Below, in pieces: positions 4,348 to 20,027 of a stretch of DNA of 64,000 nt. Source of the stretch: Clostridia bacterium (GTDB taxonomy: Bacteria; Bacillota; Clostridia; Christensenellales; UBA1242); NCBI GenBank assembly GCA_041663585.1, contig JBAYMN010000003.1, positions 2,438 through 66,437 on the forward strand, given 5' to 3'. The stretch's first letter is position 1. Each line of letters begins with the position of its first letter. The notes beneath the pieces were generated by a model. That model made no database searches. It saw only the letters and a list, made by a program, of their open reading frames with translations, and had not been told where the DNA came from. Both the position numbers and the translations under genes were made by a program.

Positions 4348-6915
4348 TTATTTCTTATTAAACACGCTCACAATGCCCGTATAAACAGGATAAGATGCTT
4401 GGACTAATACAATTACAAATAATGTGTTTTGAAGACTTAACGAAACATATTCAAAGAATGTAGATGGTACAAATATTAGTAGCATTGCACTTAATAATAA
4501 CATCGCACAATACAAAATGCTTCTAAACAAATCAAATGGTTTACATAATTTTAATAAAATTAATAATCCAGTAAAAGTAACCGAAAGTGATGCCATAGTT
4601 TCAAACTGCCCGCCTACTCCAATAAACAAGTCAAACACATAGCACGCAACTACATTAAGTGTCAAAATTAACGCACCAGGAAATGATTTAACTAGTAAAT
4701 TAGACAAGAACTTTCCTTTAATTCTTTCGGTGTTAGCCTGCATAGCAAGGAAGAATGAAGGAATACCTATAACAATAGATTCTAGCATTAATATTTGATT
4801 GGTATTAAACGGGTATTCCTTAGCAAATATTAGGCAAAGCACAGAAATTAAAATTGTAAATATTGTTTTCATTAAAAACAGCGAACTGCTTTTTTGTATA
4901 TTGTTAACTACTCGCCTTCCTTCTGCTACTACGCTTGGCATACTAGCAAAACTGCTGTCAAGTAATACTAAATTGCTTATATTTCGTGTTGCCTCGCTAC
5001 CGCTTGCCATTGCAATAGAACAATCTGCCTCTTTAAGGGCCAAAATATCATTTACACCATCGCCAGTCATAGCAACTTTATGTCCTTTGCTTTTTAGTGC
5101 TTTTATTAAAATATATTTTTGTTCGGGCGAAACTCTTCCAAACACTGTATATTTATCTGCCGCTGCAATAACTTCTTGTTCATTTAGCCCGTATAAACTT
5201 ATAAAATGTTCGGCTCCGGCAACGCCTACGCGTTTGCTTACTTCACTAACGGTTATAGGATTATCACCTGAAATTATTTTAATTTTTACATCATTATTTC
5301 TAAACCATTTTATAGTTTCGGTTGCATCTTCTCTAATGTGGTCTTCAATTACAATTATTGCAATAGGCTTGCGTTTTGTTGGTAAAGCATCTGCCGAAAT
5401 TGTACCTTCACATTTAACAAGTAAAAGTGTTCTAAACCCCTTAGAAGTATACTGTTTAATTAATTGTTCAAGTGAGCCATCTTTTGCTTTATAAACAAAC
5501 TCCGGAGCACCAAAAGCATATGTTTGCCCATTGCTAAATGTTACAGCGCTTAATTTACGACTACTGCTAAATGGCAAGACTGTTTTTGCGGTTAATTCGC
5601 GACTCACTCCAAAATAATTAAGCATTGCAACCGAAGTTTGATTATTGTCATCTAAGGCGGCTAACATTGAACCCATGATTTCGCCTACTGTATTAGGTAA
5701 ACTATGTTCCAACTGTAAAACTACATTAACTTTCATTGTCCCATCAGTTATTGTTCCAGTTTTATCTAAACAAAGCATATCGGCACGAGCAAGCATTTCT
5801 ATGCTGTATAAATCCTGAACGAGCGTACGCTTTTTTGCAAGTTTTACAACACCAACAGCAAGAGTTAAACTTGTTAACAAAAACATTCCAGCTGGAATCA
5901 TACCAATTACCGAACCAGCAGTTTTTTTGACTGTTTCGGGCAAATTTTCTAATACAGAATAATTATTGTTGAACATTAATATTGCAAGTGGAATAATTAT
6001 AACCGCAATCAATTTTATTACTAATCTTAAACTGCCAAGAAGTTCACTTTTGGGCTTTTTATATTGTTTTGCTTGCGCGGCAAGAATTGAAGAATAGTTA
6101 AAATCGCCAACTTTGTCAACTTGGGCAACGCATTTTCCACTAACTACAAAACTTCCACTTAGTAATGTATCGCCTTTCTTTTTCTTTATAGCAACGCTTT
6201 CACCCGTAAGTAGACTTTCGTTAACTTCTAGTTCGCCTTCAAGTATTATACTATCGGCGCAAATCTGTTTACCAGAAACATAACTAACAACATCATCTAG
6301 CACAATCTCTTTAATAGGAAGTGTAACAAATTTGCCATTTCTTAGCACTTCGGCGGTAGGTGCGGTTATTAGTGAAATTTTCTCTATTGTAACTTTTGCT
6401 TTAATTTCTTGAATAATTCCTATTGCCATATTAGCGATAATGGTAATCATAAATACTAAATTAGTAAATGCCCCTACCCCAATCAAAGCAGCAGAAACCA
6501 AAAAGCATAACAAATTGAAAAAAGTAAAAATATTACTAAAAAATATATTGCGGTATGTCTTTATATTTTTATTTTCAATAGTATTAACATAACCGCTAAT
6601 TTTTCGCTCTTCAACTTGTTCATTTGTTAAACCAAGTTTTGCAGTAACACTATATCTAACTGCATCTTCAATTCTTAAATTTTTAGGTTTTTTATACTTT
6701 ACTACAATAGGCTTACCGTTTTTATCGGTTAGTTTTTTATCTTTATTTTCTGTGGTTATAGTTGTTTCATTACTAACGTTAGTAATTTCTGCGGGTAAAA
6801 CCTCATTAACTATATTATTTTTTTCACTGCGTGATTTTTTAATTAAGGTCGTACTTTCACTAGATAAGGTATTGATAATTTCAGTTTTATTTTGTGCAGA
6901 TACATTTTTAGCCAT
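4348..6915 (-). CDS. Cation-transporting P-type ATPase (HAD-IC, CtpE-like)
   Basis: TGES, DKTGT phosphorylation motif, GDN, TGDGVND; membrane motif IPAGM. Confidence 0.92.
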   Translation of the reverse strand: MAKNVSAQNKTEIINTLSSESTTLIKKSRSEKNNIVNEVLPAEITNVSNETTITTENKDKKLTDKNGKPIVVKYKKPKNLRIEDAVRYSVTAKLGLTNEQVEERKISGYVNTIENKNIKTYRNIFFSNIFTFFNLLCFLVSAALIGVGAFTNLVFMITIIANMAIGIIQEIKAKVTIEKISLITAPTAEVLRNGKFVTLPIKEIVLDDVVSYVSGKQICADSIILEGELEVNESLLTGESVAIKKKKGDTLLSGSFVVSGKCVAQVDKVGDFNYSSILAAQAKQYKKPKSELLGSLRLVIKLIAVIIIPLAILMFNNNYSVLENLPETVKKTAGSVIGMIPAGMFLLTSLTLAVGVVKLAKKRTLVQDLYSIEMLARADMLCLDKTGTITDGTMKVNVVLQLEHSLPNTVGEIMGSMLAALDDNNQTSVAMLNYFGVSRELTAKTVLPFSSSRKLSAVTFSNGQTYAFGAPEFVYKAKDGSLEQLIKQYTSKGFRTLLLVKCEGTISADALPTKRKPIAIIVIEDHIREDATETIKWFRNNDVKIKIISGDNPITVSEVSKRVGVAGAEHFISLYGLNEQEVIAAADKYTVFGRVSPEQKYILIKALKSKGHKVAMTGDGVNDILALKEADCSIAMASGSEATRNISNLVLLDSSFASMPSVVAEGRRVVNNIQKSSSLFLMKTIFTILISVLCLIFAKEYPFNTNQILMLESIVIGIPSFFLAMQANTERIKGKFLSNLLVKSFPGALILTLNVVACYVFDLFIGVGGQFETMASLSVTFTGLLILLKLCKPFDLFRSILYCAMLLLSAMLLIFVPSTFFEYVSLSLQNTLFVIVLVQASYPVYTGIVSVFNKK

Positions 6916-7018
6916 TTTTTATATATTCCTTTGATTTATTTAATATTTTAATTATTATAGTGTCTTATTGTAACATAAAAAATAAATTTTCTCAATCAAA
7001 CAATTAGATTTAAATAAA

Positions 7019-7044
7019 AATACCGCTAAATTTTAAGCGGTATT
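7019..7044 (-). terminator. Intrinsic terminator of the ECF sigma / anti-sigma transcript
   Basis: AATACCGCT-8nt-AGCGGTATT followed by a T-run on the minus strand. Confidence 0.75.
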
Positions 7045-7065: not shown

Positions 7066-8151
7066 TTATTGCCCGTTTCGCTCCTTATTATATTCATAAG
7101 AATTATGACCATTAGTTCTTACAGTATATTTATACCTATAATTACAATAAACCTCATCATATTCTGCTTCAATCTCAATATTTCCAATTTCATTATCGGC
7201 ACCATTATTAATAGAATACGAAATTTTAATGCAAGATTTCTCGTTTACTGTTTCGCTCTTAATAGTATAGTCATATGTTGAACCTTCTGAATTTTGTATT
7301 TTTAATTTTGTAATTAATTTATTATTTTCAGTGTGTAACGAGATTTCACTAGATGTATAAAGTTCAGATGCAACATAAACTTTGTAAGCAAATTTTTGTT
7401 CTTCATTTTCTACTTTATAAGTTACAGTAACATAATTATCTATATCAAGTGGCGAACTATATATTGTAAAGGTAATTTTTTGCTCTTCTAATATATTTTC
7501 TTGTTTGCCGTTAAAAGGATACTCTATATCATTTAAAATAGCAATTCCGCTTAATTCAAGTACTTCTTCATTGATAATATTATAATAAATTGTGTACAAT
7601 TTTTCCGCATTAATCATATCATTAGCCGAAAATACAATTTTATAACTATATTCTAGCCTATCTGATATTAAGTTTTCATAATTAATTGTGCTTTTATCGC
7701 CCATAAAATCTTCTAAAACATTTATATGGCTATTTAAATCATCTAAACCAGCATCTATAAGTATATTGTCATCATTATTATTGCCATTTCCACTTCCTTT
7801 CCCACTTAAATTCAACTCGTATAAATCCATATTTATATCTAACATTTTAGCAGCGGAAAGTGTAGAAAAAGTATAAACTTGTTCACTTGTTTCAAATCCT
7901 ACTTCTAAATTGGTAGTACTCGGTTTAACCAAAGTGTAAATTAATAAACTTGCACTAATTACTAGTAGTATAGCAAGCGAAAATTTGAAAATAAGTGGCA
8001 AACTAAATTTTAATTTTATAGGTTTTTTAACTATTGCTTTTTCTTTATTTTCAATAATATTAATATTATTTAAGTCAATACGACTAGAAATGTCGGGGGT
8101 ATTATCAATAATGTAATCTTTGCATAAATTTTTAAATTTATTCTTATTCAT
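7066..8151 (-). CDS. Putative anti-sigma factor: short cytoplasmic N-terminus, one TM helix, about 280 aa extracellular domain
   Basis: Overlaps the ECF sigma stop codon; TM segment FKFSLAILLVISASLLIYTLV. The extracellular part aligns along its length with the lipoprotein at 8749-9777. Confidence 0.75.
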   Translation of the reverse strand: MNKNKFKNLCKDYIIDNTPDISSRIDLNNINIIENKEKAIVKKPIKLKFSLPLIFKFSLAILLVISASLLIYTLVKPSTTNLEVGFETSEQVYTFSTLSAAKMLDINMDLYELNLSGKGSGNGNNNDDNILIDAGLDDLNSHINVLEDFMGDKSTINYENLISDRLEYSYKIVFSANDMINAEKLYTIYYNIINEEVLELSGIAILNDIEYPFNGKQENILEEQKITFTIYSSPLDIDNYVTVTYKVENEEQKFAYKVYVASELYTSSEISLHTENNKLITKLKIQNSEGSTYDYTIKSETVNEKSCIKISYSINNGADNEIGNIEIEAEYDEVYCNYRYKYTVRTNGHNSYEYNKERNGQ

Positions 8152-8674
8152 TAATGCTTACCTCCTTCAAATTTTTAACACGTTTAATTGCCCTATTATA
8201 GTTTGTAAGAACTGTACCTAGTGGCATATTAAGAACGCTTGCAATATCTTTAAATTTCATACCTTCTGTTAAATGTAATAGCAAGATTTGTCGTTCGCTA
8301 ACACTAAATTTTTCTAATATCTGTTTTGCAAAAAGTTTATTATCATTATTGTCCTCGGTTGCCGGCAATAGATATTCTTGTTCTTCGGTATCTATTACAA
8401 CATAATGTTGTCGTTTTCTATAATAATCAATAGCACAATTTTTTGCTATTGTAAGTAACCAATTTTTAAAATTTTTATTTTTATCATAATAATTAATATA
8501 AGAAAGCATTTTTATATATGTATCTTGCATAACATCTTCTGCTAAACTTTTATCTTTGACAACCGCAATAATTATCGCAAAGACAGATTGTTTTGTTTCT
8601 TGATACACATATTGAAATGCTTCCCTGTTTTTTTGAACTAATAATTCTATATAACAGCCAAAGTCAATTTTCAA
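8144..8674 (-). CDS. ECF family RNA polymerase sigma factor
   Basis: 176 aa; region 2 AEDVMQDTYIK...FKNWLLTIAKNCAIDYYRK and region 4 ERQILLL...KDIASVLNMPLGTV; TTG start with AGGAG RBS. Confidence 0.92.
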   Translation of the reverse strand: MKIDFGCYIELLVQKNREAFQYVYQETKQSVFAIIIAVVKDKSLAEDVMQDTYIKMLSYINYYDKNKNFKNWLLTIAKNCAIDYYRKRQHYVVIDTEEQEYLLPATEDNNDNKLFAKQILEKFSVSERQILLLHLTEGMKFKDIASVLNMPLGTVLTNYNRAIKRVKNLKEVSINE

Positions 8675-8700
8675 AAATGATTCTCCTTTTGTATGTGGCT

Positions 8701-8709
8701 ATTATACCA
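8701..8709 (-). promoter_or_regulatory. Extended -10 sigmaA-type promoter upstream of the ECF sigma gene
   Basis: TGGTATAAT (TGnTATAAT) on the minus strand, 26 nt before the TTG start. Confidence 0.5.
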
Positions 8710-8748
8710 TAAATTTTGTAATGTAAAAACTATTTATTCTGATATATA

Positions 8749-9777
8749 TTAATCATTATTGTGTTCTTCATTTTGTTCTTGATTTCTATGCTGATGGCGT
8801 TCTTGATTCATTGTTAATTCGCCTTCTTTATTTTCAGCCTTAACATAATATTCATAAGTATTTTCGCCAGTTTCTTCATTGATAATTACTTTAACTTTAA
8901 TGTTACCTTTTTCTATAAGACTAGTTTCATCGGCAACCTTATATTTAATTTTAATTATTGTTTCGCCATCTTCTATTTCTTTTTTAAATGTGTATTCGCC
9001 TTTGTTTCCGCCTTCAATAAACTGTAATCTAATTTTTACACCATCTTCTTCTTGTTCAAGTTTAATTTGAGTTTTAGTTTGGATAGTGCCATTAGCAACT
9101 ACTTCATACATAAATTTTTTTTCCAAACTATCAATTTCGTATTTAACTTTTACATAATTGTCTTTGTCAATTTTACTAAACATAATAATTTCTTGTTCGT
9201 CGCCTTCATTTCTAATCAAGCCTTCAAGTGCATATTCATTTTCACCTACAACAATAAGACCGTTTAGCATAACTTCATACTGTGCTTGCACTGTTTCATC
9301 AGATATGTCATCTTGATGGACTGCATCAGTTTCGTCAATTTCTGCTGTAACTTCTTCATTATAATATAAAGTATAAACTAAACTATTGCCTAAAATGTCC
9401 CTTGTGGTATAGACTAATTTAACAGTATATTCCACTCGGTTGGAAACTTGCGATTCGACTGTTAATGCAGAATCATCGCCTAAATACTGTTCCATAACAT
9501 TTAAGTACTTGTTAATTTCGTCCATCTGGTCTTCTACGGCAAGATTAAAACCAGAACCCGCCATGCTTAAACTTGGTGCGTATGAGAGCGGTAAAGTGGT
9601 GTTTGTTAATAAATCTGCATCAAGCAATTCAGCAGATGAAAGTGCCGAAAAAGCATACACTTCTTGTGCGCTATTAAAAGAAATATATCCTGCTATGTCT
9701 TCGCCTTCACAGCCTATAAAAGCAAGACTGCTTGCAAGCATTACACCTGCTAATAGTATTTTTGGTAATTTTTTCAT
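8749..9777 (-). CDS. Acidic lipoprotein, paralog of the anti-sigma extracellular domain
   Basis: Signal peptide MKKLPKILLAGVMLASSLAFIG-C (lipobox). Blocks such as FNSAQEVYAFSALSSAELLD match FETSEQVYTFSTLSAAKMLD in 7066-8151. Confidence 0.85.
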   Translation of the reverse strand: MKKLPKILLAGVMLASSLAFIGCEGEDIAGYISFNSAQEVYAFSALSSAELLDADLLTNTTLPLSYAPSLSMAGSGFNLAVEDQMDEINKYLNVMEQYLGDDSALTVESQVSNRVEYTVKLVYTTRDILGNSLVYTLYYNEEVTAEIDETDAVHQDDISDETVQAQYEVMLNGLIVVGENEYALEGLIRNEGDEQEIIMFSKIDKDNYVKVKYEIDSLEKKFMYEVVANGTIQTKTQIKLEQEEDGVKIRLQFIEGGNKGEYTFKKEIEDGETIIKIKYKVADETSLIEKGNIKVKVIINEETGENTYEYYVKAENKEGELTMNQERHQHRNQEQNEEHNND

Positions 9778-9808
9778 AATTAAAAACCTCCTTCGTTTTA
9801 TAATATAG

Positions 9809-9836
9809 ATACGAAGGAGATTTATTTTTTATTTCA
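9809..9836 (-). promoter_or_regulatory. ECF-type promoter upstream of the lipoprotein gene
   Basis: TGAAAT-17nt-CGTAT, close to the sigW/sigX/sigM-type consensus TGAAAC-N16/17-CGT. Confidence 0.6.
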
Positions 9837-9900: not shown

Positions 9901-12111
9901 TTAATTAAATCCAATTACAACGCCCATTCTGCAAGATGCATTGTCTGCGTTTGCGTAAACATACATATAGTCGCCAGCAAAGAATGATTGAATTGCCTCA
10001 ATATCAGTCTGTGTTAATGCTGATAATATTGCTAGGTGATCAGCAGCATTTATTGAAGCAAATTTTATAAAATCAGTCCCGTTAAATATATAAAAGTAAG
10101 TACCATCAGTAAATACAATTCCACCATTTGAACTTTGGAAAATAGGAACAGCGGCTTCATATGCAGAAGAATCGTAAAGTGCTGTCAACATTGTTGCTAA
10201 TTCTTGATTTCTTGCTACATAAGATTCGCCTTCTTTATCTAATGCAGTAGTATTTTTATCAATAATACTGTCTGCAATATTAATAGATATTGCTCCTTTT
10301 ACATCATAGGTATCTCCTAAATCATCTGACATAACTACACCAATAAGATTGATATAACCATTATCACCTATTATAGTTAATAATTGAGTTGAATCAAATA
10401 CAAGACTTAAATTAGCCTCATATACTCCTGCTATTTGATTTAAACCCGATAAAACTGCTTTAAGATCAGTAGCGATATTGCTTGCACCGTTCAATTTAAA
10501 CCAATTTTCAAGTCCTGTTACTGGATTTTCAAGTATAGTATTTGAAGTTGTAAGTGTAGAATAATTTCTATCTTCATCATTACCATAATCTGCATTAATA
10601 ATTAATGGGCCACCTGCGCGTTTATATTCACAGTTTTCCATTGTTACATCTGCACCCCAAAGGTAAAACATACAACTAAACGAGTCATAACCTTTGCTAT
10701 TTAAAAGTGTTACTTCGTTAATTACTTCATAGTTTGTAACTTCTACACTTTCATCTGTATCCACCCACTGTCCAAACGGGCAAAGAATTGTGCAAACTGC
10801 TTTTACAATTGTATTATTCATTGTAAAACTTTTTGAACTTGTTCTAAATAATGTAAATCCACCGGAAGCGGCAAGCGTTTCGGTACGACTTGCATTACCA
10901 ATAATATTTATATTTTTGACGGTAACAGGACAAATATAAGGAGTATTAGCGGGAATATTATAATCATCACCTGCAAAACCAAATAAGGTTGAGTGACTTA
11001 TAACACCTTCGCCACCGACACCCATTGTATTTCCTTTAACAATTAAAGGAATTTGTGAGGCATTAAGCGTAAAGTAATTTCCAATAAAGTTGAATTCTGT
11101 ATCTGAATCGGTAATTAAAGAATAGATTGAGCGCCTATCTTTAAGGCTACCCGCAACTTGTTCGGAGTCTTGCTCTTCTTCGGCAGGGGTATAAATAAAG
11201 TCAGCAGGAATATCATTTGCTGTAATCGCAATGTCATTGTGCATAATAATTGCATTGATTGCTTCATAACTTACATTATGATCAGTTTTATAATCTTCCC
11301 AAGCATTATTTGTATTATTATCAATTTTGCTTAAATCTTCGGCAGAATATGCATTCCAGCCATCTATAACTTTAAAAGAAAAACTAATTGGGCCATCTGA
11401 AAATTCATTAAGTTCTTCAAGCGTTAAATAATATGGCCTAACAGTAATTCTAAACTCTTTACCAATTGCACTTTCAGTAAAATCAAATGTGGACCATTCA
11501 TCATCAACAGTTACCATTTCGGTAAGTGCAGTGTCAGTTAGTTCTGTCCAAACATCATCTTGTAATATATCAACACTAGAAATGCTTTTATATTTGTTTA
11601 GTGTGCTAATTTCGCTGTTTAATACAACTGTAATTTCGGGTAAAAATTTAAAAGCATTATCATCGCCTACAAAATAGCCATCATCTAAAATTAAAAATTC
11701 CGTTTCTTTATTATCTATTTTTGTAGCGATATTACTTCTGTATGTTACAATAAAGTTTGGCTTTCCAAAACCTACGAATTGATACGCTTCATCAATATTG
11801 TTGTAAACATTAATTGTAACATTAACCGTGTTTTCTTTATATGTAATTGTTAATGTTTTTTCGCCTGATGTTTCGGTAGAAACTTCACCTAATGTTAAAT
11901 CAGGATAAGCGATTTCTTTTACACTGCCATCTAAATACTCCATAACAAGTACAGTATCAGTAAAATCTAATGTATCTCCAACGACACAAGCAACTGGAAC
12001 AGTGCCTTGTTTTACATACAGTCTATAAAGACCAACTTTACAAGCCGAAAAAAGAATTGGGGCTAATAAAATTAATATTATTGCAAGTAACGCACTAATT
12101 TTCTTATTCAT
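9901..12111 (-). CDS. Large surface lipoprotein with a bacterial Ig-like domain and a probable parallel beta-helix region
   Basis: Start moved to ATG 12111 (GGAG RBS). Lipobox LFSA-C; Ig-like VGDTLDFTDTVLVMEYLDGS...STETSGEKTLTITY; repeated VKNINI / TMNNTIV / VTLLNS / VTMENCEY strands. Confidence 0.65.
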   Translation of the reverse strand: MNKKISALLAIILILLAPILFSACKVGLYRLYVKQGTVPVACVVGDTLDFTDTVLVMEYLDGSVKEIAYPDLTLGEVSTETSGEKTLTITYKENTVNVTINVYNNIDEAYQFVGFGKPNFIVTYRSNIATKIDNKETEFLILDDGYFVGDDNAFKFLPEITVVLNSEISTLNKYKSISSVDILQDDVWTELTDTALTEMVTVDDEWSTFDFTESAIGKEFRITVRPYYLTLEELNEFSDGPISFSFKVIDGWNAYSAEDLSKIDNNTNNAWEDYKTDHNVSYEAINAIIMHNDIAITANDIPADFIYTPAEEEQDSEQVAGSLKDRRSIYSLITDSDTEFNFIGNYFTLNASQIPLIVKGNTMGVGGEGVISHSTLFGFAGDDYNIPANTPYICPVTVKNINIIGNASRTETLAASGGFTLFRTSSKSFTMNNTIVKAVCTILCPFGQWVDTDESVEVTNYEVINEVTLLNSKGYDSFSCMFYLWGADVTMENCEYKRAGGPLIINADYGNDEDRNYSTLTTSNTILENPVTGLENWFKLNGASNIATDLKAVLSGLNQIAGVYEANLSLVFDSTQLLTIIGDNGYINLIGVVMSDDLGDTYDVKGAISINIADSIIDKNTTALDKEGESYVARNQELATMLTALYDSSAYEAAVPIFQSSNGGIVFTDGTYFYIFNGTDFIKFASINAADHLAILSALTQTDIEAIQSFFAGDYMYVYANADNASCRMGVVIGFN

Positions 12112-12254
12112 AATATCTCCTTTAATATTTATTATTGTTTTACATTTGTACAAAATTTATTATTATTTTGGTTAAACTGGTTAGTTGTTTTGAACAAAAT
12201 GAAAAAGACATTTGTATTGTACTATAAGAAAAAATAATTAGCAATTATTTTACA

Positions 12255-18389: not shown

Positions 18390-20027
18390 TTACGAAAATG
18401 AGATAATGTAATAGTACACCGGTTGTCCTCCATAAAGTGCATTAAATTCAACTTTTGGATATTTTTTTGTTAAAAGTTCTTGTAAACTTTTTGCATCTTC
18501 TTCTATTACATTTTCACCATAGAATAGTGTTACATTTATAATTTTTTCATTAAGCATTTTGCTTATTAAATCTTCTGTGGTTTTGTTTACAGTATGTCCT
18601 TTTGCTATTATTGCTTTATCATCTAATCCTATTATATCGCCCTCATTTAGTTTAAATTTATTAACTGCTGTTGTTCGGACAGCGTAAGTTACTGCACCTG
18701 AACATACTTTTTCTATTGCATCGTCCATACCTTGCAAATTTTCGGCGACTGTGCTTTCCGAATTAAAACAAAGCACTGCTGATATACCTTCGGGTATGGT
18801 TTTTGTAGGAACAACATTAATAGATTTATCTGTTAGGCTTTGTGCTTGTTGTGCCGCTAATATTATGTTTTTGTTATTTGGAAAAATAAATACTTTTGTT
18901 GCATTTATTTCATTAACAGCATTTGCAATATCTAGCGCACTTGGATTCATAGTCTGTCCACCGCTTAAAACATTATCAACGCCTAAATCTTTAAAAATGT
19001 CAATAAGCCCATCGCCCATAGCAATTGCAAGAAGACCAAAAGGCTTTTGTTCAGATACAAATTCGGCTTTTTCTTTTATCATTCGGTTTTGTTCAAGCAT
19101 ATTTTCTATTTTTACACCACTTATTTCGCCCAAATTTAATGCATAATTTAAAGCCTTATTCGGTTTATTAGTGTGTAAATGCACTTTAATTAACTTTAAG
19201 TCGCCAACGCAAATTACAGAATCGCCTATTTCCATAAGTTTTTTTCGCAAAATACTAATATTTGATTTTCGAATATTTTTATTCAAATTAATCACAAAAA
19301 ATTCCGTACAGTATGCAAATTGAATTTTTGACAAATCTTCATAATTAATTATATGGTCAGCAGTTTCATTAGTATTTTTTATTTTATCATTATTTAAATT
19401 AAGCACTAAATCGTTGTTAGAGATTATGTTATAAAGGCCCACAAAAAATATGACCAATCCGCGCCCACCAGCATCTACTACTCCTGCTTTTTTAAGTATA
19501 GGCAACATTTCGGGTGTTAGTTTTAAAACTTTTTCTCCCTTTTTTAACATTGCTTTTAAGCAAGTTTCAAAATCGCTGTGTTTTTTTGACACTGATAATG
19601 TCCGTTTAGCCATTGCCTTTATAACAGTTAAAATAGTCCCCTCTTTTGGCTTGGTTACAATTTTATATGCAATAGACGCACCCTGCTGTAATGCATAAGC
19701 AAAATTTTTGGTATTAATTTCATTGTAACCTTTAAGTACTTCACAAATTCCTTTTAAAATTTGTGAAAGAATAACGCCCGAATTACCGCGAGCACCTTTT
19801 AATGCACCTTTAATAACTGCTTCACAAATATTAGGCATATCATTAGTTGTACATAAATTTATTTCATCAACAACAGATTTTAGTGTAAGCGACATATTTG
19901 TCCCAGTGTCTCCATCTGGTACGGGAAAAACATTTAACTCATTAATGTGTTCTTTATTTAAATCAACTTGTTCTGCACCTTCAATTATCATTTTTTTGAA
20001 TAATGCACCATTAATTAACTCCTGCAC
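18390..20027 (-). CDS. fakA: DAK2-domain fatty acid kinase subunit A (YloV)
   Basis: INELNVFPVPDGDTGTNM, GARGNSGVILSQ, YCTEF, GGQTMNPS, GGQPVYYYIIS. Confidence 0.93.
   Translation of the reverse strand: MQELINGALFKKMIIEGAEQVDLNKEHINELNVFPVPDGDTGTNMSLTLKSVVDEINLCTTNDMPNICEAVIKGALKGARGNSGVILSQILKGICEVLKGYNEINTKNFAYALQQGASIAYKIVTKPKEGTILTVIKAMAKRTLSVSKKHSDFETCLKAMLKKGEKVLKLTPEMLPILKKAGVVDAGGRGLVIFFVGLYNIISNNDLVLNLNNDKIKNTNETADHIINYEDLSKIQFAYCTEFFVINLNKNIRKSNISILRKKLMEIGDSVICVGDLKLIKVHLHTNKPNKALNYALNLGEISGVKIENMLEQNRMIKEKAEFVSEQKPFGLLAIAMGDGLIDIFKDLGVDNVLSGGQTMNPSALDIANAVNEINATKVFIFPNNKNIILAAQQAQSLTDKSINVVPTKTIPEGISAVLCFNSESTVAENLQGMDDAIEKVCSGAVTYAVRTTAVNKFKLNEGDIIGLDDKAIIAKGHTVNKTTEDLISKMLNEKIINVTLFYGENVIEEDAKSLQELLTKKYPKVEFNALYGGQPVYYYIISFS

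Follow-up and report, generated by a model that had tools for sequence, protein, structure and literature searches.

Why would a bacterium encode the same extracellular domain twice around one sigma factor gene, once on a lipoprotein and once on a membrane protein? This question is raised by a three-gene locus in a stretch of 64,000 nucleotides (nt) from a member of the Clostridia (NCBI GenBank assembly GCA_041663585.1, contig JBAYMN010000003.1, positions 2,438 to 66,437 of the forward strand), which as a whole is called the window here. The genes for the lipoprotein L, the sigma factor S of the extracytoplasmic function (ECF) type and the single-pass membrane protein A follow one another on the minus strand (Table 1). 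The module is real, conserved and unannotated. We propose, with about even confidence, that the three genes make up a self-contained envelope-signalling module whose output protein has been copied to build its sensor.

A preliminary description of the window had given the gene order as lipoprotein, ECF sigma factor and transmembrane protein, and had claimed that the two outer proteins are related. The order was borne out by the open reading frames. BLASTP aligned L with A with 93 identities in 311 residues (30%), 54% positives and an E value of 5e-35, so that the pairwise check suggested there proved significant, and every block that had been quoted falls inside this alignment. The alignment is collinear from just past the lipobox of L, or the membrane helix of A, to near both C-termini, and judged by sequence L and A are true paralogs. 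L opens with a signal peptide and lipobox (MKKLPKILLAGVMLASSLAFIG-C23), as expected of a lipoprotein. Its mature part consists of an alpha2-beta15 domain, an acidic insert and a His/acidic tail, carries a net charge of -35 and is matched by a hidden Markov model of the ectodomain family at 2e-103. S gave Pfam matches to Sigma70_r2 (1.4e-14) and Sigma70_r4_2 (3.2e-9) and scored 78.4 bits against TIGR02937 (cut-off 42.9), placing it with the ECF (group 4) sigma factors. No NCBIfam equivalog model was reached, and by these matches there is nothing unusual about S as an ECF sigma factor. The text of the 2021 ECF classification contains no mention of a lipoprotein-linked Firmicutes group (PMC7826278). 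The stop codon of S overlaps the start of A by 8 nt (ATGAATAA) with GGAGG inside the 3' end of S, and an intrinsic terminator past A marks the end of the module.

To see how widely the arrangement is kept, neighbourhoods were read in genome and metagenome collections and in sister genomes. The search for related loci, with a 12-sequence alignment, gave eight genome loci and four metagenome loci. Transmembrane forms of the ectodomain lay directly behind an ECF sigma gene related to S in all 13 cases with readable upstream DNA. The sigma and A genes overlapped at start and stop or were a few bases apart, with the Shine-Dalgarno sequence inside the sigma gene, in 11 loci besides the window, and a lipoprotein paralog adjoined the sigma/A pair in 11 of 11 loci with enough flank. 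The order L-S-A was seen in the window and in loci L008-L011, L014, L025 and L029-L031, the order S-A-L in L018 and L028, and a divergent arrangement (L<>S-A) in L054. Since the flanking genes differ from locus to locus, the three genes form a unit. A profile search combined with neighbourhood analysis had been recommended as a check on the triad, and by these means it was found to recur in many genomes and in three gene orders. The closest relatives are labelled uncultured Bacilli, Izemoplasmatales among them. The module of L008, labelled 'uncultured Bacteroidales bacterium', is nearly identical to that of L010 ('Bacillales bacterium UBA2253'), and the Bacteroidales label is probably a binning error.

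The genome that contains the window measures 1.03 Mb at about 96% completeness and encodes Spo0A, penicillin-binding proteins and M50 site-2 proteases. Its size, Spo0A and the penicillin-binding proteins indicate a Firmicute that has a cell wall, forms spores and carries a very small genome. It holds two members of the ectodomain family only, L and A, and a phmmer search with S revealed no second sigma factor of this type in it, another small sigma factor being encoded on contig C16. A profile search of its own bacterial family found members in 28 of 121 genomes, representing 22 of 58 genera; among the 20 of these that were read, 18 show the lipoprotein only within the stretch fetched. In wider samples a family match was present in 4 of 400 genomes of the class and 2 of 401 of the phylum. 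Recent horizontal import of the module was considered and dropped: a single-sequence search of 40 relatives had come back empty, which reflects the sensitivity limit of that search, given that the profile found 28 of 121.

The context of A is that of a membrane anti-sigma factor, the role that the preliminary description had given it. A is encoded directly downstream of the sigma gene and translationally coupled to it, crosses the membrane once and has a conserved, short cytoplasmic N-terminus. Alignment of 31-43 transmembrane forms gave the N-terminal motif MKxxxIKxxIxxxxxxxxPDVxxKIDLxxIxI, in which Pro19 is invariant, and residues 1-48 are presumed to be the sigma-binding segment. ASDI and zf-HC2 gave no Pfam or NCBIfam match in A or in 43 relatives of transmembrane form, the cytoplasmic part of about 48 residues being without a His/Cys motif. 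The RsiV-type domains DUF4163/DUF3298 gave no Pfam match in A at E up to 1 and no PDB-sequence or Foldseek match, Pfam found neither RsgI_N nor RsgI_M in the A of the window, and a profile of the N-terminal motif matched none of the PDB sequences.

Sister genomes of the same bacterial family bear on this assignment. In these, sigma factors orthologous to S (E 1e-32 to 1e-54 against the module-sigma profile) precede single-pass proteins, and in L067, L068, L070 and L076 these partners carry RsgI_M (PF23750) above cut-off. Of the proteins encoded behind these sigma factors, the motif profile picked out those of L073 (E 4e-10) and L071 (E 0.003) and no others. Because RsgI_M partners of orthologous sigma factors carry similar N-termini, the N-terminus and membrane helix would be the constant part of the anti-sigma factor and the ectodomain the exchangeable part, and the sequences fit such a sigma-binding chassis with swappable sensor domains. 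The RsgI_M-type partners in L067, L068, L070, L071 and L076 (genomes G906, G870, G915, G841 and G022) have INPS or INPR just outside the membrane. RsgI autoproteolysis has been reported at such an Asn-Pro site (PMC10328401). The pairing of an ECF-type sigma factor with an RsgI-type sensor may merit attention in its own right.

We then asked how L is transcribed. The promoter elements named in the preliminary description, TGAAAT-N17-CGTATC before L and TGgTATAAT before the sigma gene, are both present. The former is close to TGAAAC-N16-CGTATA, the sigmaW consensus of Bacillus subtilis, and the promoter scan reported no sigma-70-type site in this region. The sigma gene is preceded by TGnTATAAT in nine loci (L008-L011, L013, L014, L025, L029 and L030), while that of L031 has a full TTGACA-N17-TAAGAT instead. 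The linked L genes carry another type of element. In eight Bacilli-type loci it is CCAAT/CCAAG-N17-CGTATAA, placed 29-43 nt upstream of the ATG, a distance shared by the candidate element of the window (36 nt), and in a second clade it is GGCAAA/ACCAAC-N16-17-(A)TTGTTGTATA. This second clade includes the S-A-L and divergent loci, and there the motif lies in the intergenic region of L itself. Hairpin terminators stand between L and S in L010, L011 and L013. Collectively, the separate motif and the terminators across homologous loci support L as a transcription unit of its own with an ECF-type promoter (AAC-like -35, CGT -10). Where L genes of the same bacterial family stand alone, their promoters are mostly sigmaA-like. 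In the window no terminator lies between L and S, so that read-through from L into the sigma operon, and with it positive autoregulation, is possible there.

The start of L in the window also carries a predicted 13-bp hairpin (Table 1), whose 3' arm contains the Shine-Dalgarno sequence GGAGG (9791-9787) and whose 5' arm overlaps the candidate -10 element. Such a hairpin would resemble a terminator of the upstream gene, and only in transcripts begun upstream would it hide the ribosome-binding site; transcripts from the candidate L promoter would not include its 5' arm. A more distal CGTATAG (about 9858-9852) was not taken as a promoter, as it lies inside a hairpin just past the upstream gene. 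Scanning of the whole genome with a regular expression and a position matrix gave no convincing regulon, and the matrix missed the window's own site. One of only three matches to motif plus Shine-Dalgarno sequence genome-wide is on contig C11 at about 22928 (minus strand), where GCAAA-N17-CGTATT and AAGGAGG precede the gene for an ATP-binding cassette (ABC) exporter of at least 482 residues. As a possible second target of the sigma factor, this exporter is a weak candidate.

The domain shared by L and A is undescribed in the libraries and literature searched. The preliminary description had recognized no domain family in either protein, and this held throughout: Pfam and NCBIfam gave no match at E up to 1 barring a sub-threshold NEAT, PADLOC (defence systems) gave none, and none was found among PDB sequences. 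The NEAT assignment was rejected, as it reached E 0.003 and 18.3 bits against a cut-off of 32.8 and appeared in only 1 of 43 relatives. A word-indexed protein search with a single query returned the query itself only, and with a 43-sequence profile it returned four proteins, acidic low-complexity words having swamped the candidates. A profile of both ectodomains run against 1.84 billion representative proteins, by comparison, retrieved 592 clusters at E<=1e-3, 58 of them at E<=1e-30. The top 150 relatives comprise about 95 signal-peptide forms, 82 of them with a clear lipobox, and about 43 with an N-terminus of about 45 residues followed by one transmembrane helix. Wherever the sources give a name to a family member, it is 'hypothetical protein'.

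AlphaFold2 modelled the ectodomain of A from a 150-sequence alignment with a predicted local distance difference test score (pLDDT) of 90.4 and a predicted template modelling score (pTM) of 0.88; a two-sequence alignment as input gave a pLDDT of only 38. The model places two long helices (about residues 89-114 and 132-150) ahead of a meander of 15 antiparallel strands. Foldseek comparison of this model with PDB and BFVD, a scope that supports the absence of a solved relative and no more, found nothing below E 0.001; the best matches were at E 0.07 in PDB, with template modelling (TM) scores <=0.29, and at E 0.07 in BFVD. LolA/RseB-like, lipocalin/avidin, NEAT and other known beta-rich ectodomains gave no significant match in sequence or fold.

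All family members are strongly acidic, with net charges from -19 to -128, and within a locus L usually exceeds A in acidity. The YxLYYNE strand is followed by an insert that is acidic or rich in Thr/Glu, and the tails are acidic, some of them His-rich. In thirty alignment columns conservation reaches 60% or more in the L group and in the A group alike, with the same residue in 30 of 30, and many of these are tyrosines that make up a Tyr-rich core. Mean conservation is equal between the groups (0.417 vs 0.409), and conserved glutamates specific to the L group were also seen. The identity of the shared columns and the equal conservation argue that the A ectodomain is subject to the constraint, structural or functional, that acts on L, and is no decayed remnant. 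That the family binds a cationic ligand is a reasonable guess and no more, drawn from how acidic its members are and from the glutamates conserved specifically in L.

In a maximum-likelihood tree built from 31 ectodomains, seven A forms including that of the window make up one clade (support 97). The A ectodomain of L031, by contrast, groups with the lipoproteins of L031 and L017 (99), and that of L029 with the lipoproteins of L029 and L030 (97), so that well-supported branches force at least three switches between L and A states. In L031 (2429-5122; GCA_950096665.1) A and L share 50% identity (E 1e-86), whereas most pairs share 24-30%. The tree together with the identity in L031 shows that the local lipoprotein has repeatedly been the source of a new A ectodomain, at least three times by the tree, and the similarity in L031 points to recent duplication or gene conversion. 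As a further observation on L031, an MMPL transporter gene follows the module on the opposite strand. In the same bacterial family, lipoproteins of this kind are commonly encoded alone and behind sigmaA-type promoters, which means that L has a function of its own. Read in this way, the sigma/A pair is an add-on that took control of L in some lineages.

The sequences show that L and A are paralogs, that the triad is conserved and its sigma and A genes translationally coupled, that two promoter types are kept apart across loci, and that the ectodomain was copied anew repeatedly. We infer sigma binding by the N-terminus of A, sigma-dependence of L, proteolytic release, feedback through the same ligand and the nature of that ligand, in the following scheme. 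S and A would be co-expressed constitutively from a housekeeping, sigmaA extended -10 promoter, and the short cytoplasmic N-terminus of A would hold S, with one helix crossing the membrane and an outer part that copies mature L. A putative extracytoplasmic ligand or condition, recognised by the alpha2-beta15 domain, would destabilise A, which would be cleaved, presumably by regulated proteolysis, an M50 site-2 protease being encoded in the genome. Freed S would transcribe L from TGAAAT-N17-CGTATC and, in the window, would probably also read through into its own operon. L would then accumulate on the outer face of the membrane. As L carries the same binding domain, we propose that the same ligand binds to it and that the signal falls, a negative feedback through buffering or sequestration. 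A role of L as a decoy would be plausible, and the acidity of the family suggests that the putative ligand may be cationic or amphipathic.

Several observations weigh against this proposal. The N-terminus of A matches no known anti-sigma domain (zf-HC2, RskA, RsgI_N). The -35 element in the window (TGAAAT) differs from the CCAAT of its nearest relatives, whose position matrix gives the site no high rank, and CGTATAAT contains a sigmaA-like TATAAT, so that the -10 evidence is not exclusive. Acidity may also be common to the exported proteins of these lineages in general. Finally, in G022 the genes run S, an RsgI_M-type anti-sigma factor and a family lipoprotein L, which implies that a twin ectodomain is not obligatory for linkage of L to this clade of sigma factors.

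The decoy is one version of the copied-sensor proposal and, on present evidence, is hard to tell apart from capture of a substrate by L or direct pairing of L with A. A broader design, in which a sensor copied from the regulated surface protein is renewed by duplication or gene conversion, so that sensor and output retain one specificity, and acidic L acts as an inducible sink for a cationic envelope-active agent (antimicrobial peptide, lytic enzyme or phage protein), is speculative, and we think it unlikely in this full form. If it were true, this module would be the one dedicated ECF circuit that 1-Mb Firmicutes have retained.

L might instead bind a useful substrate, perhaps a lipid, a metal cation or a polymer from the host or the environment, with A sensing its availability and switching L on. 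This would be feed-forward induction analogous to the SigI/RsgI biomass sensors, with no protective decoy, and the architecture would be identical to that of the copied sensor. The genomes are small and auxotroph-like (about 1 Mb), L has genes for fatty-acid-binding DegV proteins as neighbours in loci L009 and L011-L013, the tails of some members are His-rich or acidic, and the weak Foldseek neighbours are lipid- or ligand-binding barrels (Osh4/ORP, avidins), none of them significant. Those Foldseek matches, however, are all above E 0.05 with TM scores <=0.29, no transporter is conserved beside the module, whose flanks differ in every locus, and the window has no DegV neighbourhood. We therefore hold capture to be a minority explanation with a limited chance of being right.

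Alternatively, L could bind the ectodomain of A as a pseudo-homodimer, shielding or exposing a site-1 cleavage, in which case the circuit would gauge L itself, a form of homeostasis by analogy with RseB on RseA or CpxP on CpxA. A homotypic interface is often retained between paralogous domains, L and A stand side by side in every locus with enough flank, and an A ectodomain copied time and again from the local L would keep such an interface matched. L is nevertheless far commoner than the sigma/A pair and in most same-family genomes occurs solo with sigmaA-like promoters, implying a function without A; the existence of these solo genes argues that L is not merely a modulator of A. In G022, moreover, the ectodomain of the anti-sigma factor is an unrelated RsgI_M, yet L is linked. 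We judge direct pairing to be rather improbable. It is very improbable that there is no regulatory tie at all, with A a membrane-anchored lipoprotein relative co-transcribed by chance, S otherwise controlled and L independent: the A N-terminus matches no described anti-sigma domain and the promoter assignment in the window rests on analogy, but 13 of 13 transmembrane forms lie behind an ECF sigma gene with coupled translation across deep divergence and three gene orders, the N-terminal motif with its invariant Pro19 is conserved and recurs on RsgI_M-type anti-sigma proteins behind orthologous sigma factors, and linked and solo L genes differ in promoter type.

No description of a module of paralogous lipoprotein and anti-sigma factor was found in the literature searched. 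The proposed copied-sensor module works most like SigV/RsiV and belongs to neither the RsiV nor the RsgI family. In SigV/RsiV of B. subtilis the ectodomain of the anti-sigma factor is a receptor for lysozyme, and release proceeds through signal peptidase and then a site-2 protease (PMC4183432, PMC5014341, PMC6066255). An ECF sigma factor is likewise paired in the window with a single-pass, putative anti-sigma factor, and it is the ectodomain that serves as receptor in RsiV. The RsiV ectodomain is DUF4163/DUF3298, whereas the A of the window matches neither, and the autoregulated sigV operon has as outputs OatA and dlt, enzymes that protect the envelope, in contrast to the copy of the sensor domain here.

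In SigI/RsgI of Clostridium thermocellum the outer module (CBM, PA14) is of the same kind as in the proteins that the sigma factor induces (PMC4711584, PMC6852018, PMC10328401). The present locus resembles these systems in that the sensor matches the domain kind of the output, and RsgI sensors too are swapped on a constant anti-sigma chassis. RsgI systems use a SigI-type sigma factor, whereas S is a plain two-domain ECF sigma factor, and they carry RsgI_N/RsgI_M, neither of which is present in the A of the window, although orthologous sigma factors of sister genomes pair with RsgI_M proteins. The output of SigI/RsgI is an enzyme regulon; here the presumed output is a single protein, a lipid-anchored copy of the entire domain whose gene lies alongside.

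Accessory envelope proteins that feed back on a sensor from outside are found in SigmaE-RseA-RseB of Escherichia coli, in CpxP-CpxA and in the sigE-cseA system of Streptomyces. Unlike L, RseB, CpxP and CseA are not paralogs of the sensor domain (for context, PMC2215328, PMC6767563). RseB is also co-transcribed and not separately induced, whereas L has its own candidate promoter. A further likeness is to systems with other signalling chemistry and no sequence or fold relation to this family, namely BlaR1/MecR1 (metalloprotease and repressor) and LanI (two-component system). The sensor domain of BlaR1/MecR1 and the induced BlaZ/PBP2a share the penicillin-binding superfamily, and LanI immunity proteins are surface lipoproteins that sequester a peptide antibiotic.

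Pairs of ECF sigma and anti-sigma factors are a major route of transmembrane signalling, and the signal is known for only a minority. As the sensor domain and the presumed sole output of this module are the same domain, identifying the ligand of L would identify the signal too, and L is expected to be abundant and easily purified. The domain family spans hundreds of 50%-identity clusters from gut and sediment Firmicutes that are unannotated and confidently modelled without a solved relative, and it is well suited to structural and ligand studies. That the ectodomain has repeatedly been copied anew from the lipoprotein beside it offers a testable case of sensor specificity being kept matched to an effector.

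Table 1. Coordinates of the module and its transcription signals in the window
Feature	Position	Strand	Details
Lipoprotein L	8749..9777	minus	342 aa (residues); lipobox FIGC, Cys23; open reading frame and translation
ECF sigma factor S	8144..8674	minus	176 aa; TTG start
Single-pass membrane protein A	7066..8151	minus	361 aa
A, cytoplasmic N-terminus	8008..8151	minus	residues 1-48; alignment of 31-43 transmembrane forms
A, single transmembrane helix	7927..8007	minus	about residues 49-75; hydropathy scan
A, ectodomain, paralog of mature L	7069..7926	minus	BLASTP; AlphaFold2 model
Candidate ECF-type promoter of L	9808..9836	minus	TGAAAT (9836-9831)-N17-CGTATC (9813-9808); 36 nt before ATG
13-bp hairpin (predicted)	9784..9823	minus	9823-9811 pairs with 9796-9784; fold -28.5 kcal/mol, z = -3.9
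sigmaA-type extended -10 before sigma/A operon	8701..8709	minus	TGgTATAAT (TGGTATAAT)
Intrinsic terminator past A	7019..7044	minus	9-bp stem, then TTTATTTAAA; terminator scan

The gene upstream of the module in the window (9901-12153, minus strand) encodes a lipoprotein of 750 residues with lipobox FSAC and one Big_3 domain and no other family match, and a second hairpin (9889-9851) lies past its stop codon. A DegV-family gene, judged from its N-terminal sequence only, stands immediately upstream of L in four Bacilli-type loci (L009, L011, L012 and L013); the window has no DegV gene beside L and encodes FakA at 18390-20027. Directly downstream of the module is a gene for a P-type cation ATPase (4348-6915, minus strand), which is set apart by the terminator past A and is not conserved beside the module elsewhere. 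It has a promoter of its own at 6967-6995, a sigma-70-type TTGAGA-N17-TACAAT with an extended -10 (TG before the second hexamer).

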